DNA of 64,000 nt. Origin: Octopus vulgaris (taxonomy: Eukaryota). Numbering within the stretch: position 1 is the stretch's first letter; every line of letters begins with the position of its first letter. A program made the translations under genes and the position numbers. The DNA lies in contig OX597823.1 of NCBI GenBank assembly GCA_951406725.2, forward strand, positions 16,492,001-16,556,000, read 5' to 3'. The notes beneath the pieces were generated by a model that saw only the letters and a program-made list of their open reading frames with translations, did no database searches and was not told where the DNA came from. This document shows positions 7,774-61,349 of this stretch, one piece after another.

Positions 7774-8009
7774 ATTAATAAAATAGAAGATGGAATGTGT
7801 ATTAGATGTTATTAAGTACAACACATGTTTCGACCCGTCGTTCTGGGTCTCTTCGTGTTTGATGGACAAATAACAGTAAGCAAACCAACACAAGAAATCT
7901 CTAGTGTGACTTTTTTATTGATGTAACCGAAGAGACCCAAAACAATGGGTTGAAACATGTGTTGTACTTAATAAAGTCTAATACACATTCCATCTCCAAT
8001 TTTATTAAT
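7774..8009. mobile_element. inverted pair of Penelope-type terminal repeats with hammerhead-like motif
   Basis: Arms 7774-7855 and 7928-8009 are reverse complements. Each has (A/C)CGAAGA-GACCC-N8-GGGT(C/T)-GAAA-CATG. Confidence 0.6.
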
Positions 8010-23689: not shown

Positions 23690-24005
23690 TTTTGCCCAGT
23701 TGTTTGTTCCTTCTCGAGCCATGCCTGGCTCATAAGGGCCGGTTTCCCGGTTTCCTTGGCATATAGGTTCCTCACCTGGACGGGACGCCGGTCCGTCGCA
23801 GGTGAGCTGCAAGATGCAGGAGGAAATAATGAGAGAAAGTTGTGGCAAAAGAGTCAGCAGAAGTTCACCATTACCTTCTGCCGGAACACTGAGGAGCTTA
23901 GGTGTTTTGCTCATAAACACACATATATCACCTGGTCTGAGATTCGAACCTGCGACCCCTCGACTGCAAGTCCGCTGCTCTAACCACTAAGCCACGTGCC
24001 TCCAT
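23690..24005 (-). mobile_element. tRNA-derived SINE family C variant
   Basis: The reverse complement begins TGGAGGCACGTGGCTTAGTGGTTAGAGCAGCGGACTTGCAGTCG...GGTTCGAATCTC. Confidence 0.75.
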
Positions 24006-30085: not shown

Positions 30086-30301
30086 AAAAATTGTTCTTAA
30101 ATTTTTTAAAAAAGAATCTATGTTGTATAGTATTGGTTAAGAGCACGGGCTACTAACCCCAAGATTCTGAGTTCAATTCCAAGCAGTGACCTGAACATTA
30201 ACAACAACAACAACAACAATAATAATAATTGTACATAATTCCTCATCTCTTAAATATAGAACTGTACACTGCTTTTGTTTCAATTTAAAAATAATGAACT
30301 A

Positions 30302-30511
30302 CTCTTTTACTTGTTTCAGTCATTTGACTGTGGCCATGCTGGAGCACCACGTTTAGTCAAGCAAATTGACCCCAGGACTTATTCTTTGTAAGCCTAGTAC
30401 TTATTCTATTGGTCGCTTTTGCCAAACTGCTATGTTACAGGGACATAAACACACCAGCATCAGTTGTCAAGCGATGTTGTGGGGGGGACAAACACAAACA
30501 CACAAATATAT

Positions 30512-30730: not shown

Positions 30731-30770
30731 GAGTAGTACATTGTTTTTAAATTGAAACAAAAGCAGTGTA

Positions 30771-31130
30771 CAGTTCTATATTTAAGAGATGTGGAATTAT
30801 GTACATTATTTACATTTGAAAGATATTTGTCTTCGTCTTGTTTGTTGTTAACATGACAGGCATATGGCGTAGTGGTTAAGAGCACGGGCTACTAACCCCA
30901 AGATTCCGAGTTCACTTCCAAGCAGTGACCTGAACATTAACAACAACAACAACAATAATAATAATAATGATAACAACAACAACATCGAAAAATACCTTAG
31001 GACTGAGAACCCAGGTTCGAAATTTCCCCAAAACACCTGAAGAAGGCTGGAGGGTATATCAGCCGAAACGTGTTAACAACAAACAAGATGAGGAGAAATA
31101 TCCGTCAAATGTAAATAATGTAAATAATGT
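30771..31130 (+). mobile_element. tRNA-head/hammerhead Penelope-type module (family E): inverted 3' fragment plus full unit
   Basis: 12-bp TSD AAAAGCAGTGTA (30759-30770, 31131-31142). Inverted tail 30771-30853, tRNA-like head from ~30858, CTGAAGA at 31037 and GAAA at 31065. Confidence 0.85.
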
Positions 31131-31413
31131 AAAAGCAGTGTATTTCAACAAAAATTGATTAACAAAAGAGTGAAAGTGATCTAAATTAAAACCCTCCTTC
31201 ATAATTTCATGTTAATTTATGTTTCAAATACCAGCTTAATAATCCCTTTCTACTATAGGCACAAGGCCTGAAATTTTAGGGGTGGAGATTAATTGATTAC
31301 ATTGACACCAGTATTTGCGAAAGGATGAAAGGCAAAGTTGACCTTGGTGGAATTTGAACTCAGAACTCAATTCTGCCAGCTTGCTGCCTTATGCCAGCTT
31401 TATAATGACAGAT

Positions 31414-47644: not shown

Positions 47645-48641
47645 GTTAATGGCTCTAGAAAGCTGTAAAGTAAATAGAATATGAAGAACAAGAACAATAA
47701 TAATAATGAATACTTTTCTTTGCTACAGAGGTGTTAGATGAAGGATGAGGTGAGGGCATTACAAAGACAGATTACAATTTATGTTGGGGAGGGGGTTGCA
47801 TTGGATGAGGAGGAAAAGTGGAAGAAGTGGATGAGATGAAATGTATACATGATATACAAAATCTAGAAATATATGAATGATATAGATCTCCTGATACAAT
47901 AGACCCTCCAATTAGGGCCAGTCAAAGAACCTCACAAATCCAAGATCACCATATCCCATCATCACCACTAACAGCAAGTACCATTTCTCATCTATTGTTC
48001 TCTGATCAACAGGCACATGCTTAGAGTAGTTCCATCCTCTCACACACACACATACACATACACACAGCAGGCTTCTGCTTGCCAAATTCCACTCACAAGG
48101 TTTTGTTCAACCTGAAGCTATAGTGTCAGTCACTTCTTACAGGATGTAATGTGATGAGATCAAATCTGGAACTACATGGTTGGAGAAAGAACTTCTAAAC
48201 CAACCATGCAGATACTTTCTTCACTGACCCCCACCCAGCAAAATGACTGAATTAACTAAGGTGAAAGTTAATCTCTGAACCTAAAGAAATGTTATTAAAT
48301 ATTGCTAAGTATTCATCCTCACATTCCATTATTTCTGACAATGCCCCACAACTATAACAATAATGATTACCAGCCAACAAGAGAACTTCAATGTGATTGT
48401 TTTAAGAGCTAAAAATATCAGTCAAATCTATTTCGATTCATATTTTTCTTTCTAGAAAAAGAAAGGAAAAGAAAAAAGAAACACGTTAGATAACGTAGCC
48501 CAAATAGGTAAACTATGCTTGAAATGGGATGCGCATGGATTGAATGTCTTTGGTTCATAGTCCTGTTCAATCAATATTAACCTGAGTTAAGAATTATTAC
48601 ACTGGGGAACAATTTTGAAAATAATTTTTCACTGGCTTTAA

Positions 48642-48862
48642 CCCTTTAGTATTCAGATTATTCTGTCAAATTTAATGCTTATGTAATCAAATTGTTTTGA
48701 ATTAATCATGCAAAAACATTATAGCATTGAAATTTTGAGGATGTGATTACTTATTCTTAGAATGACATTGTAGGATAAGTTTGCAAAGCCAGATCCGGTC
48801 AGTTTGAACATAGAACAGGTAGAATATTTAGGCCGGATATGGCCGGTTTAAATGCTAAAGGG
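48642..48862. mobile_element. piggyBac-type (TTAA) MITE family 2
   Basis: TTAA-CCCTTTAGTATT ... AATGCTAAAGGG-TTAA. Confidence 0.75.
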
Positions 48863-49003
48863 TTAAACTAAAATTGGCATACTTATTTCAAAACTACACT
48901 CAGTTTTCATCTATCACACCAGATTTCTTTCAACAATTTACTCTCTGAATAAACACAATTGTATTGTTTGTCTATAAGTGATAGGACTGTCCATAAGTGA
49001 TAA

Positions 49004-49417
49004 GACTGGGATGAAGTTAAAATAATAGACACAGGAAAATACGAAAACTAAGAGAAGCAGCACATATGCTAGGACACAACAACCTCCTAAGTAGACTGAG
49101 TGTGGATATGAGCAGCATAAGGGACCCAGTATTAAGGAAGGATAGGAAAATATTAGATTTATAAGCCCTAAAATTCACTCCATAATTGCCTATGGGCATA
49201 TGGCATATTGGTTAAGAGTGTGGGCTACTTACCCCAAGATTCTGATTTCAATTCCAATCAGTGACCTGAACAACAACATTGAAAAATACCTTAGGAATGA
49301 GAACCTAGGTTCGAAATTTCCCCAAGACACCTGATGAAGGCTGGAGGGTATATCAGCTAAAACGTTGTGTTAACAGCAAACAAGATGAGGACAAATATCT
49401 ATCAAATGTAAATAATG
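49004..49417 (+). mobile_element. 5'-truncated Penelope-like element: probable GIY-YIG C-terminus, then tRNA-like segment, then hammerhead motif (family E)
   Basis: DWDEVKIID / (frameshift) HRKIRKLREAAHMLGHNNLLSRLSVDMSSIRDPVLRKDRKILDL* (stop at 49164). Head GGGCATATGG from 49194; CTGATGA at 49331. Confidence 0.75.
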
Positions 49418-49429
49418 AAATAAGTTAGT

Positions 49430-50800
49430 CAAAAGACGATTGCACAGACTTTTACTTTTGTTTAGTGAAAACTTCAGGATATAACAAGAAAAATAAATGT
49501 GAAATTGAGTATTCTAGTCTACCATCAATTATACATTTAGTACCTCATTCAGTTGAAATCCCAGTGCCAATTTTCATTCAACTAACTGCTCTTGAAAATC
49601 TGAATAATGATGAAGAACTCAATGACAGCAATGATGCAGATTTTGAAATTGAAGATGACTCAGTTTGTAAGGGATTCAATCAGCATGAGTTGAATGATAT
49701 GGCATGAGACTTGAGATTATTAAAAATGGTCTCAGAACTCCTAGCATCAAAACTGAATGAGAAAAAAGCTGCTTGAAAAAGGAGCAAAGGTATCCTACTA
49801 TCAATCCAGAATAAGTGCATTTCTGAGACACTTTTGAAGTGATGGTAGGTTTGTATATTGCCATAACATGCAGGTTTTACTAGAAGAATTGGAATTTCCA
49901 ATCTACAACTTAACTGAATGGCAACAGTTCAGGGATAGTTCAAGCAGATCTTAAAGTGTGTCCTTCCTCCTCCACAATAGCAATTCATATAGTACAGTCC
50001 CAAATGGACATTCAATTTATCTTCAGGAAGAATATGGAGACACAGAGTTACTGAGTTGTTGCTGTATGACAAACACAATTGGATTATCTGTGTTGATCTT
50101 TAAATGGAATGTTTCCTTCTTGGTCAGCAACATGGATACACCAATTATCCCTGCTTGAGAGAAACCTTGAGTGAAGAGGAATTGGCTTCCCTGATCTGAT
50201 CTCAAACCTGGTGATCCCAACATTCTACATAAAGAAAATTATATTCCCATCCCTGCACAAGAAATTGGGTCTCATGAAACAATTTGTTAAAGCATTGCCA
50301 AATGAAGGTAACTGTTTCAAGTACCTTGTTTTGGCATTTCTTAGCCTGCCAATTAAAAAAAGTCAGTTCTGGCATGTTTGATGGTTTACAGATTCAGTAA
50401 CTCATCAAAGATGAACATTTCATTGGCACAATGTCAGAACTTGAAAAGAATATTTGGTTATCATTCAAAAACCTTGTCAAGAACTTTGTTGGACATACAC
50501 AAGAAAAGAATTACGTTAAAATTGTCCAGAAACTTATTGGAGAGTTACAGAATGCTCAGCTGCAACATGAACATAAAGTTGCATTTTCTGCACAGCCATC
50601 TTGCTAACTTCCCTGAAAACCTTGGTGAGGTTAGCAATGAGCAAAGTGAATGATTCCACTGAGATTTGAAAGTCATAGAGGAGTGGTATCAAGATAAATG
50701 AGATATAAATATAATGGCTGACTATTGCTGGAGCATGAAGTAAAACTGTCCACAGATTGAACATGCCAGAAAAAACTATAAATGTAAATTTTTACCTTAA
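49430..50800 (+). pseudogene. decayed DNA-transposon transposase (widespread invertebrate family; superfamily uncertain)
   Basis: IFPSLHKKLGLMKQFVKAL and MNIKLHFLHSHLANFPENLGEVSNEQSE*FH*D...ADYCW motifs, with many stops. Confidence 0.7.
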
Positions 50801-58366: not shown

Positions 58367-59752
58367 TGAGAGTGGGTTGAAAAGTTCATAGGCTGACTAT
58401 GATGGAGTGATGCTATAGCTGTGAAATCTTGCATGCATTAATTTCAGCTCTCATCTAGAACTACATTGTTTCTTTCCAGATAAACTGGCATCTCACTGTT
58501 CAAAGAAGGCTTCAAAAATAACCAGAAGTGACTTCTCTTGAAAATGGTCAAAATTTGGTATCATGGTGTTATACTTGCATAAAAAAGGGTTTAAACCTCC
58601 AGCAATATTTGTGCTGACATTTTATGTTCAAACTAGTCAGATATGGTCATTCATAGCTACCTTATTGTGTCATTTTAAAAATAAAGAATCACATCATGGA
58701 AATCTCAAAGCCATGAAATGATGCAAGATTAATTTTACATGGTGTGAATACATAAGCTTTAATCTGAATGCAAAAGGGTTAAACCTCCAGCAATATTTGT
58801 GCTGACATGGTTGCTACAGTAGGGGATGACACTCCAACTTTATCAGCAGTGTAAAAGTGGCCAGTTGAATTTCACCACAGGTGATGGATGACAGGTGATT
58901 GACTATAAATCAAATAGCCAATGTCATTAGCATATCCCATGAGAGAGTTGAGAATATTCTACACAATGAACTTGGCATGATGAAGGTTTCTGCTCAGTGG
59001 CTGTCATGTCTTCTGACACCTGATCAAAAGCACACCAGACTGATAACATCACGGGGAAAATTTGACATTGTTTTGCAGCAGATCCTGCTGGTTTGCTTGA
59101 ATGTTTCCTAATTCAGGATGAGCATTCAGTTAATCACTTCGAGCCTAAGACAAAGACAATGCATGCTGTGGAAACACCCCTCCTCACCTGCTCCAAAGAA
59201 GGCCAAGATTATTTCATTTGCAGGAAAGGTGACGGCCACAATTTTTGAGGATGCAGAAGACATTGTATTTATTGTCTATCTTCAAAAGGGTCACACCCTC
59301 AATGGAAAGTACTATGCCAGCTTTCTGAAGCAGTTATGAAAGGCTATCAAGACCAAACACCCAGAAAACTGATGAAAGGGGTCTTGCTTCAAAAGGACAA
59401 TGCTCCTGCACACAAGTCCTTGGTTTCAATGGCTGCTGTGTGTGACTGTGGCTTTGGACTGGTTGATCAGCCTCCCTATTCTTCTGATTCTACCCAATCT
59501 GACTATCTTTTGTTTCCCAACATGAAAAAACACTTGGCTGGGAACCAGAATCACAATGATGATGACATCATGTTTGCTGTTGATGACTTTTTTTGATCAG
59601 CAGGAGGAAAGCTCCTTCACCATTGCAATCCAAGCAGTGCAACACTAATGGAAAAAGTGTGTGCACCACAAGGGGGACTATATTGAAAAACAAACCTCAC
59701 ACATCCCATGAAGGTATTTTGGTCAGCCTATGAACTTTCCAGCCAACACTCA
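58367..59752 (+). pseudogene. decayed mariner (irritans/Hsmar2-like) element with TIRs
   Basis: TIRs TGAGAGTGGGTTGAAAAGTTCATAGGCTGAC / GTCAGCCTATGAACTTTCCAGCCAACACTCA, TA-flanked. Motifs LGMMKVSAQW, AGKVTATIF, DNAPAH and PPYSSD..SDYLLFPNMKKHL. A MITE remnant lies at ~58590-58785. Confidence 0.88.
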
Positions 59753-60556
59753 TAGTTTGAAATATCAATCATTCATTTCCTTATTCTCTTTGAAGGGAAC
59801 TAACATAATTATTGTAGATCTAAGATAGAAATACATTCTTAAATGTACTTTGTTTTAATACTTTAGTCATCAAGAAGAGTCAGAGTCCATGTCATCTGCA
59901 GACCTTTCAGCATTCATGTGATCATGATATCTGCAAGAAAAATGTGAGGGACAGAGTTCCTGAGGTTTAAAACTCTGGTGAGGGAGAATTAGAAAAAGGG
60001 ATAAGTACATGCCCAAATGCAGCAACACAGTAAAGATGATGAAAGGAGGGAAAAATGTGTCAAGTAGGCCAGGGAGGAAATGATAGCTAGTTAAGAAAAG
60101 CAGAGGCCATTGTAGTAGTAATAGAATAGGAAGAGAAAAAGACAGGGTACAGTGTTGTTGTGGGCTGGTAAAGGCATCTTTGCTAATTAATTGAAAGGCA
60201 AGGATGAGTAACTGATCAAACCTAAAGTATTTCTGGTTCTATAAAAGAAGGCTAAATACTGACTTACAATTTGTACTTCTTTTATATACATGGGGTCACC
60301 ATGTATAAAACATAGTTATGTTGATAAGCAATTAGAGGAGCAGTGACCTGATCACAAGACCTGCTAAGAATAGCAGCAAAATTTCCTTCATGTCCCACTT
60401 TACCTAAATAGTGAGAAATAAAAAGGCACGACAATGAGGGTGAATGAGGCAGAACAAAGTACTAATTATAGTTCTATATCTAAGAGATGAGGAATTATGT
60501 ACATTATTTACATTATTTACATTTGATGGATATTTGTCCTCATCCTGTTTGCTGTT

Positions 60557-60602
60557 AACACAACGTTTCAGCTGATATAACCTCCAGCCTTCATCAGGTT
60601 TC
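60557..60602 (-). ncRNA. minimal hammerhead ribozyme motif (left arm)
   Basis: GAAAC-CTGATGA-A-GGCTG-N10-CAGCT-GAAA-CG-TT-GTGTT. The catalytic core is intact; stem I has one mismatch. Confidence 0.65.
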
Positions 60603-60649
60603 TTGGGGAAATTTCGAACCTGGGTTCTCATTTCTAAGGTATTTTTCAA

Positions 60650-60703
<54 letters not shown>

Positions 60704-60944
60704 CATTATTATTATTATTGTTCAGGTTACTGCCTGGAATTGAACTTGGAATCTTGGGGTTAGTAGCCTGTGCTCTTAACCACTATGCCATATGCCCGTG
60801 GACGTAGTGGTTAAGAGCACGGACTACTAACCCCCAAGATTCTGAATTTGATTCCAAGCAGTGACCGGAACAATAATAATAATAATAATAATAACATTGA
60901 AAAATACCTTAGGAATGAGAACCCAGGTTCGAAATTTCCCCCAA

Positions 60945-60989
60945 GACACCTGATGAAGGCTGGAGGGTATATCAGCTGAAAGTTGTGTT
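60945..60989 (+). ncRNA. minimal hammerhead ribozyme motif (right arm)
   Basis: GACAC-CTGATGA-A-GGCTG-N10-CAGCT-GAAA-G-TT-GTGTT. One stem III base is lost. Confidence 0.55.
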
Positions 60990-61349
60990 AGCAGCAAACA
61001 AAATGAGGACAAATATCCATCAAATGTAAATAATGTAAATAATGTAAAGTACTAATTAGTCAGATATTATTTATCAATCTCTATTTATACTTTTAATGAT
61101 AGATTTGTTCAGTCAGAATTGATTGAGAGTTAAACAACACCAACAATGGCATAGTTTTGCTGCATGATGAAATTAATATTCATATTGAGCTTTTAGCGGT
61201 ATAGTACTTGTATGAAGTGACTGTAAAGTTTAGAACTTTTTGAAGTTATCAATAGGGTTTAACTCATGCAGTTATGATGCTGAGAAAAAAAGACGGTATC
61301 TACTTCATATAGTTTGTGTATACTGGTGTTAGTTTGACACTCATTAAAT

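Follow-up and report, generated by a model that had tools for sequence, protein, structure and literature searches.

A tRNA-derived head behind the endonuclease end of a Penelope-type element in Octopus vulgaris: a candidate promoter of short, SINE-like units

The stretch of Octopus vulgaris DNA analysed here (assembly GCA_951406725.2, contig OX597823.1, positions 16,492,001 to 16,556,000 of the forward strand; 64,000 nt, hereafter the window) contains, at 49004..49417, what looks like the end of an endonuclease reading frame of a Penelope-like element (PLE), closely followed by a tRNA-like head and a hammerhead motif. Is the head a part of the PLE, e.g., of its pseudo-LTR (pLTR), and which transcripts would it serve? 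A preliminary description of the locus, made from the sequence alone, regarded the head as part of an autonomous PLE's pLTR and as a possible internal Pol III promoter and explained the short copies of the module as truncation products. The reading preferred here, to which we assign a probability of about 0.7, modifies this proposal: the copy at 49007 would be a decayed, 5'-truncated member of an abundant Penelope/Poseidon-type element, in which a once-captured head works as a Pol III promoter, so that the element's tails behave as SINE-like units mobilised by the parental RT-EN protein.

The window consists of animal DNA that is rich in AT and in repeats. A short element at 48638-48867, presumably a piggyBac-like MITE, is bounded by TTAA and has CCCTTTAG as its terminal inverted repeats; a related copy is situated near 58620-58762. 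A decayed DNA-transposase ORF (CxDxYFC...MADYCWS), which we take to resemble Chapaev/CMC-type transposases, is situated directly behind the element under study, at 49430-50750, and a large palindrome (86.5% over 608 nt) spans 76-666.

The endonuclease end and its protein relatives

On the plus strand, 49007..49029 (frame +2) encodes WDEVKIID of a GIY-YIG domain, and 49030..49164 (frame +1) encodes the C-terminus of a PLE RT-EN ORF, comprising 44 codons and a stop. A tblastn search of the window with the protein P0001 recovered both parts, i.e., WDEVKIID at 49007-49030 (8/8 residues identical in P0001 and P0002) and a 44-aa match at 49030-49161 (75%, E 2.9e-17). The two peptides, the frameshift between them, the stop codon (TAA, 49162-49164) and the beginning of the head at 49194, after a 29-nt spacer, thus agree with the preliminary description. 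Its recognition by eye of a Penelope/Poseidon-type GIY-YIG C-terminus is backed by the match to P0001, so a PLE counterpart of the peptide does exist. It had, however, read the first peptide as DWDEVKIID; the homology begins at W (49007), and relatives have L in place of the D at 49004. Hence, the copy is 5'-truncated at 49007, and the preceding D is incidental. The frameshift at 49029/49030 represents a 10-nt deletion (23 nt present vs. 33 expected), and reads insert up to 10 letters at 49028-49029, i.e., at the deletion site.

With the open 47-aa frame as a query, P0001 (E 5.6e-13, 75%) and P0002 from O. vulgaris (76%) were matched out of seven candidates, and 49030..49164 was also aligned pairwise with P0043, an RT+EN protein of 806 aa (55%, E 1e-14). 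P0001 and P0002 display the arrangement Y-x-I-x-C-x-CG...H...H...WDEVKIID...EAAH, which we take to be the pattern of the PLE GIY-YIG domain; Pfam searches named no GIY-YIG domain. Among 27 longer relatives of P0001, nine carry the RT domain PF00078, and for one the source gives the name GIY-YIG. Members of the cluster reach 730-806 aa and combine RT, the DKG motif and EN, with RVT_1 detected in P0005, P0032 and P0043. The RT-EN linker is devoid of CxxC in all six relatives inspected, which points to the Penelope/Poseidon group and away from Neptune/Nematis by the criterion given in the excerpts of PMC8557442. Searches with P0001 in IMG/VR gave no match, and a PDB search with P0043 yielded weak group II intron-like RT matches only.

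Another PLE family has left a decayed fragment on the minus strand at 5070-3950, comprising an RT C-terminus, a linker cysteine motif and the start of GIY-YIG. It is 23-39% similar to the relatives considered here and is likely of the Neptune type, judging by its sequence.

The only named close proteins come from Octopus vulgaris and O. sinensis. One of them, P0029 (O. sinensis, 81% to P0001), reaches into the RT C-terminus, so the 5' ends in the family are staggered: at 49007 in the present copy, at the EN start in P0002 and in the RT C-terminus in P0029. Such staggering fits a long RT+EN parent, and the copies with the ORF end would accordingly be fragments of a full RT+EN element. A full-length octopus ORF was absent among the five longer proteins, and no sequence or contig spanning the distance from RT to the head was seen.

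Head, hammerhead motif and element end

The tRNA-derived head occupies 49194..49267 (+), with an A box at 49201-49211 and a B-box-like stretch at ~49243-49254, and its cloverleaf is decayed. It retains 19 of 22 positions that we assume to be the invariant and semi-invariant ones of tRNA, and the copies at 30865 and 60790 retain 20/22 and 21/22, respectively. In six shuffled windows, no site reached 20 of the 22 positions or more, and 11 sites reached 19. The tRNA fold itself has gone. ARAGORN in its default mode called zero genes in the window and did not call the head; with lowered thresholds, it reported tRNA-Ser(act) on one copy alongside spurious calls, and this result was set aside. Rfam matched neither a tRNA nor a hammerhead on any module copy, and single-strand folding ranked no copy above its shuffles (z from -0.96 to 0.72; 0.07 for the head at 49194). 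The positions of the A and B boxes are kept while the stems have decayed. The combination of preserved tRNA positions and the lack of a stable fold characterizes the head as a promoter-like relic and not a tRNA.

The head at 49194 is 84-85% similar to the heads of other module copies and 53-64% similar to heads of other SINEs in the window. The heads of other tRNA-SINE families are found at 23994, 24523, 24777, 31426, 46460, 46915 and 63688, with 20-22 of the 22 tRNA positions; those compared are 52-64% similar to the module head and, hence, not its direct source. A blastn comparison of the head with phages gave two chance matches only, and the whole unit had no match among plasmids.

Immediately downstream, at 49268..49280 (+), an alignment of six stretches of the window revealed a short AAC remnant of an (AAC/AAT)n tract, which is long in other copies. 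The remnant is likely the tail of a captured tRNA retrocopy or SINE.

The third component is a minimal type I hammerhead motif at 49327..49370 (+), found by a descriptor scan and likely inactive in this copy, where G12 is replaced by A. The descriptor selected four sites in the window vs. 1.45 chance sites per shuffled window. Three of its sites, at 49331, 60950 and 60597, belong to module copies; the mutated motif of the copy at 30859 was missed. The module hammerheads possess an extra base before helix II, a long helix II and a palindromic 15.2-16.2, and the same traits are listed for the minimal hammerheads of PLE in the excerpts of PMC4209133. Searches of GTDB genomes and IMG/VR with the hammerhead pattern returned zero matches. 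Elsewhere in the window, at 7774-8009, two hammerhead-like motifs of another family form a head-to-head palindrome, and Rfam assigned Hammerhead_1 to 7921-7972 (24.3 bits, E 0.17).

The element ends at 49371..49417 (+) with AATGTAAAT repeats and without a tail; P0002 matches this part in antisense at its N-terminus. There, 15 residues correspond to the reverse complement of the module 3' end (93%, E 1.3e-5) and are followed by the same EN. At this locus, a truncated copy is thus preceded by an inverted arm, which is the standard PLE geometry. Altogether, four of the 75 fetched proteins match the module in antisense (P0002, P0007, P0010 and P0050). The N-termini of P0007, P0010 and P0050 read the hammerhead region in antisense, including helix II (E 5e-6 to 1e-4); the EN of P0007 and P0010 is 67-68% similar to P0001, and P0050 belongs to the cluster of the 806-aa P0043. 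When the low-complexity filter was on and the whole window was the target, P0050 alone of the four stayed at E <0.01, so the support from hammerhead homology is moderate. Taken together, the junction of the module 3' end to EN in P0002 and the homologous region in three RT/EN relatives indicate that this lineage of PLE has the putative hammerhead and the 3' end as native parts.

More distant PLE served as an outgroup only. A search of JGI metagenomes with P0001 yielded 11 loci, ten of them distant PLE (39-44% over long matches), and one, L011, was dropped as a chance match. None of the ten features a tRNA-like stretch behind EN (best, 15-16 of 22 tRNA positions), and seven show a hammerhead-like end recognizable by eye or pattern. 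Given the native hammerhead and the lack of the tRNA positions in distant PLE, the best explanation for the head and its (AAC/AAT)n tract is that they were inserted into the 3' UTR, and the head was likely captured once. A GTTCGA-like word, reminiscent of a T-loop/B box lacking the canonical C61, is present at 49308-49315, shortly upstream of helix I, and before the hammerhead in L001-L004, L009 and L010; it may be a conserved feature of the PLE 3' UTR or a chance occurrence.

Junction, short copies and the role of the head

If the head is a part of the element, its junction with the ORF should recur elsewhere. From X1 (organism A), X5 (C), X11 (E) and X17 (organism A; its RNA label is a guess), all of them publicly available runs, 12,888 contigs were aligned to 48940-49270 at 80%. 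In the three DNA runs, the summed contig depth at 49193, which does not translate into a copy number, amounted to 326,942, 256,544 and 349,115, and that of the unique flank (48988-48999) to 94, 49 and 70; hence, the junction exceeds the flank thousands-fold. The depth is unbroken in all four runs, with no step at 49193/49194. This boundary is bridged, with at least 31 letters on each side, by 12 of the 32 pieces listed (two from X1, three from X5, five from X11 and two from X17). The bridging pieces are 13-20% different from the window and, consequently, represent other loci or copies. The 29-nt spacer at 49165..49193 (+) is, therefore, a 3' UTR segment common to the family, as evidenced by the continuous depth and the bridging paralogous contigs in all four runs. 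It follows that the junction is not unique to this locus, in line with the preliminary description, and that a PLE with an ORF has the head in its terminal repeat. The insertion of the head may have become fixed prior to the divergence of organisms A, C and E.

These findings bear on the simplest alternative, namely that a SINE-like module was inserted by chance beside an unrelated PLE fragment at this locus only. Such an accident would explain why, of the five copies with a head in the window, only one includes the ORF end and why no convincing TSD surrounds the whole unit (a 6-nt candidate around the copy at 49007 was rejected, being expected by chance in 27%). It is refuted by the bridging contigs, which occur in every run and under three organism labels, and it disagrees with the attachment of the module 3' end to EN in P0002 and with the hammerhead homology to RT/EN relatives, so we regard it as extremely improbable.

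The contigs are also informative as to the parent. At six of six residue-changing codons, the majority letter restores the residue of P0001 (by eye, from the contig table), suggesting that the endonuclease end was intact in the source element. The loose ends behind 49190 (17 and 14 contigs among the rows listed) begin head-like, with a mutual agreement of ~0.5, and none of the loose-end rows listed in the four runs contains an alternative 3' UTR, although a rarer version without the head may exist beyond these rows. Flanks that differ from one another ahead of 49194 are seen in 23 contigs of X5 and in none of those listed for X1, X11 and X17; the rows listed for the four runs show no dominant start site. 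The head-bearing element could, in principle, be a non-autonomous derivative made up of an ORF remnant, the head and the hammerhead, and served by an autonomous partner without the head. This would account for the want of an intact octopus ORF among the five longer proteins and for the read-through C-termini of P0012, P0013, P0020, P0022 and P0073, which lack a match to the head at E <0.01. Conversely, a consistent alternative 3' UTR, as expected from such a partner, is missing from the loose ends listed, the conserved residues are kept by the majority letters, and P0029 of the same family extends to the RT C-terminus. We consider this option, and with it a head-less autonomous partner, unlikely. 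The proposed location of the head in an autonomous PLE's pLTR thus holds to the extent that the head lies in the terminal repeat of a PLE with an ORF, but the full-length octopus copy is missing from the five proteins.

What the head does is better judged from the short copies. The window records three insertion events, i.e., the copy at 49007 and two short ones, and four of the five head-bearing copies are without the ORF end. The first short insertion (30772..31131) is composed of an inverted tail and 3' end at 30772-30855 (-) and a module at 30856-31131 (+), which starts 2 nt before tRNA position 1; its 12-nt TSD lies at 30759 and 31131. In the second (60470..61046), a module with a tail at 60801-60470 (-) is positioned head-to-head with a module at 60802-61046 (+), and the arms meet at a TGG/CCA microhomology. 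Here, the module at 60801 starts 4 nt before tRNA position 1, and the TSD (13 nt) is found at 60456 and 61046. TSDs of 13 and 12 nt have a chance probability of ~0.2%. In both of these insertions, two of the three events, the inverted arm has a 34-nt tail and the forward arm has none. An internally deleted derivative (head, AAC/AAT tract and tail) at 30130..30263 (+), 96% similar to 30869-30938, mirrors the insertion at 30856 and was counted as the same event. It is associated with an inverted repeat, 30240-30306 / 30795-30729 (95.5% over 67 nt); between 30240 and 30795, inverted duplicates of the tail and ~35 nt of the target flank surround another SINE of later origin, which suggests a fold-back that copied target DNA.

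Starts near the head in two of three events have a probability of ~0.002 under uniform truncation over 250 nt, a calculation chosen after looking, and none of the four copies contains a T4 run, a weak indication in itself. By their 5' ends, the short copies look like transcripts initiated at the head and not like random truncations. RNase P cutting of a long transcript is disfavored as their source: it would leave ends at position 1 and not at -2/-4.

The competing view keeps the head within an autonomous PLE's pLTR, as a passenger or acting on the long transcript, and derives the short copies from long RNA by 5' truncation, either random or due to stalling of RT at the tRNA-like stretch. PLE insertions are known to be highly 5'-truncated (PMC8557442, in excerpt), and this view is consistent with the staggered 5' ends within the ORF end (contigs, P0002 and P0029), with the lack of a dominant start site among the contig rows listed and with the lost fold of the head. 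Yet, both short events begin just upstream of tRNA position 1, as a Pol III leader would, and not at an obstacle on the 3' side; moreover, decay has spared the box positions but not the stems, and most head-bearing copies in the window are free of the ORF end. We rate truncation as improbable, if somewhat less so than the non-autonomous derivative. Hence, the preliminary view of the short copies as plain truncation products is probably wrong in part, given that the 5' ends in two of three events lie 2 and 4 nt ahead of tRNA position 1.

The function originally envisaged for the head also has to be divided. Pol III terminates at T4 runs and makes uncapped RNA. Since T4 terminators occur ~8.5 times per kb of one strand in the DNA of the window, Pol III could hardly produce the ORF mRNA, and it is most likely the short units that use the head. 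Thus, as a promoter of the short units, the head is a likely candidate; as a driver of the ORF, it is unlikely, and the proposal is probably wrong in this part.

Under the preferred reading of a captured Pol III promoter, a tRNA retrocopy or a simple SINE with an (AAC/AAT)n tail would have been inserted once into the 3' UTR of the PLE. Pol III would start 2-4 nt before the head and read through the hammerhead, the 3' end and the tail; the RT-EN protein of the parent would then mobilise the resulting short unit. Fold-back of the finished cDNA end may yield head-to-head pairs such as that with the TGG/CCA junction at 60801, and the ORF mRNA would still be transcribed by Pol II. The strongest version of this reading, an autonomous PLE with a working Pol III promoter in its pLTR and, hence, the first SINE family with a demonstrated PLE partner, born inside this partner and outnumbering it in octopus genomes, has even odds in our judgment.

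Comparison with known systems

According to the excerpts of PMC8557442, EN+ PLE of the Penelope/Poseidon type have RT followed by a C-terminal GIY-YIG EN, a DKG motif and a linker without a zinc finger, and PLE insertions are hallmarked by 5' truncation, an inverted upstream arm, a 30-40-nt tail and a TSD. A minimal hammerhead in the PLE pLTR is described in PMC4209133, and the mapped Penelope promoter is likened to TATA-less LINE promoters in PMC2377424 (both in excerpt). The present element is similar in its PLE-type GIY-YIG, the CxxC-less linker of its relatives, its insertion marks (two of three events and the P0002 locus) and hammerhead motif, and it differs by the tRNA head and the (AAC/AAT)n tract between the stop codon and the hammerhead.

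Pol III heads in terminal repeats are known from non-coding LTR elements. TRIMp3 elements (Cassandra, Helenus and Ajax) harbor a Pol III promoter derived from a small RNA in their terminal repeat, the proposed route being a SINE insertion, and in the excerpts of PMC10886601 their autonomous partners are argued to be unlikely to share the repeat. The likeness consists in the Pol III-type head inside a terminal repeat. At the same time, TRIMp3 are non-coding LTR elements with two LTRs, PBS/PPT and a 4-5-bp TSD, whereas here the head resides in a PLE repeat directly after a coding ORF, direct terminal repeats are absent and the TSDs are 12-13 nt long.

In Schistosoma, SMalpha/Sjalpha elements also combine a Pol III promoter with a type I hammerhead downstream of it (PMC6765202, PMC8490949). 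Their hammerhead is canonical, they form tandem arrays and no autonomous partner is named in the excerpts of these papers, in contrast to the minimal hammerhead, the dispersed copies with PLE insertion marks and the attached parental ORF seen here. Non-LTR retrozymes and non-autonomous PLE (MRC1) are non-coding, related to the pLTR and proposed to be mobilised by PLE (bioRxiv 10.64898/2026.07.22.740005 and PMC8557442, in excerpt). Retrozymes are described as promoterless tandem repeats (excerpts of PMC7761336 and PMC7229834), and the word 'tRNA' has zero occurrences in the retrozyme preprint. Their hammerhead units are arranged head-to-tail, whereas the copies in the window are single or head-to-head.

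Classical tRNA-SINEs unite a tRNA head with a 3' end shared with an autonomous LINE (PMC10886601, in excerpt). The short units described here likewise possess a tRNA head and a partner-shared 3' end, but the partner is a PLE that itself carries the head. Octopus repeat papers record Penelope and SINE families without linking them (PMC13282606 and PMC8967140, in excerpt), and the portions of SINEBase (PMC3531059) and PMC6685494 that were covered describe no such element. No description of a PLE with a tRNA head came up in the literature searched; the family may be catalogued in Repbase, Dfam, subscription journals or supplements, which lie outside this search.

SINEs are known as parasites of LINEs. 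If the preferred reading is true, a SINE would have been caught being born inside its parent, providing a PLE-dependent SINE with an identified partner. The integration reaction of PLE is poorly understood, and the short unit would offer a natural substrate of 270 nt for it, including the tail, the inverted arm and the role of the dimeric hammerhead. A part of the octopus 'SINE' fraction may then be Penelope-derived, and the element suggests a route by which SMalpha-like elements could originate.
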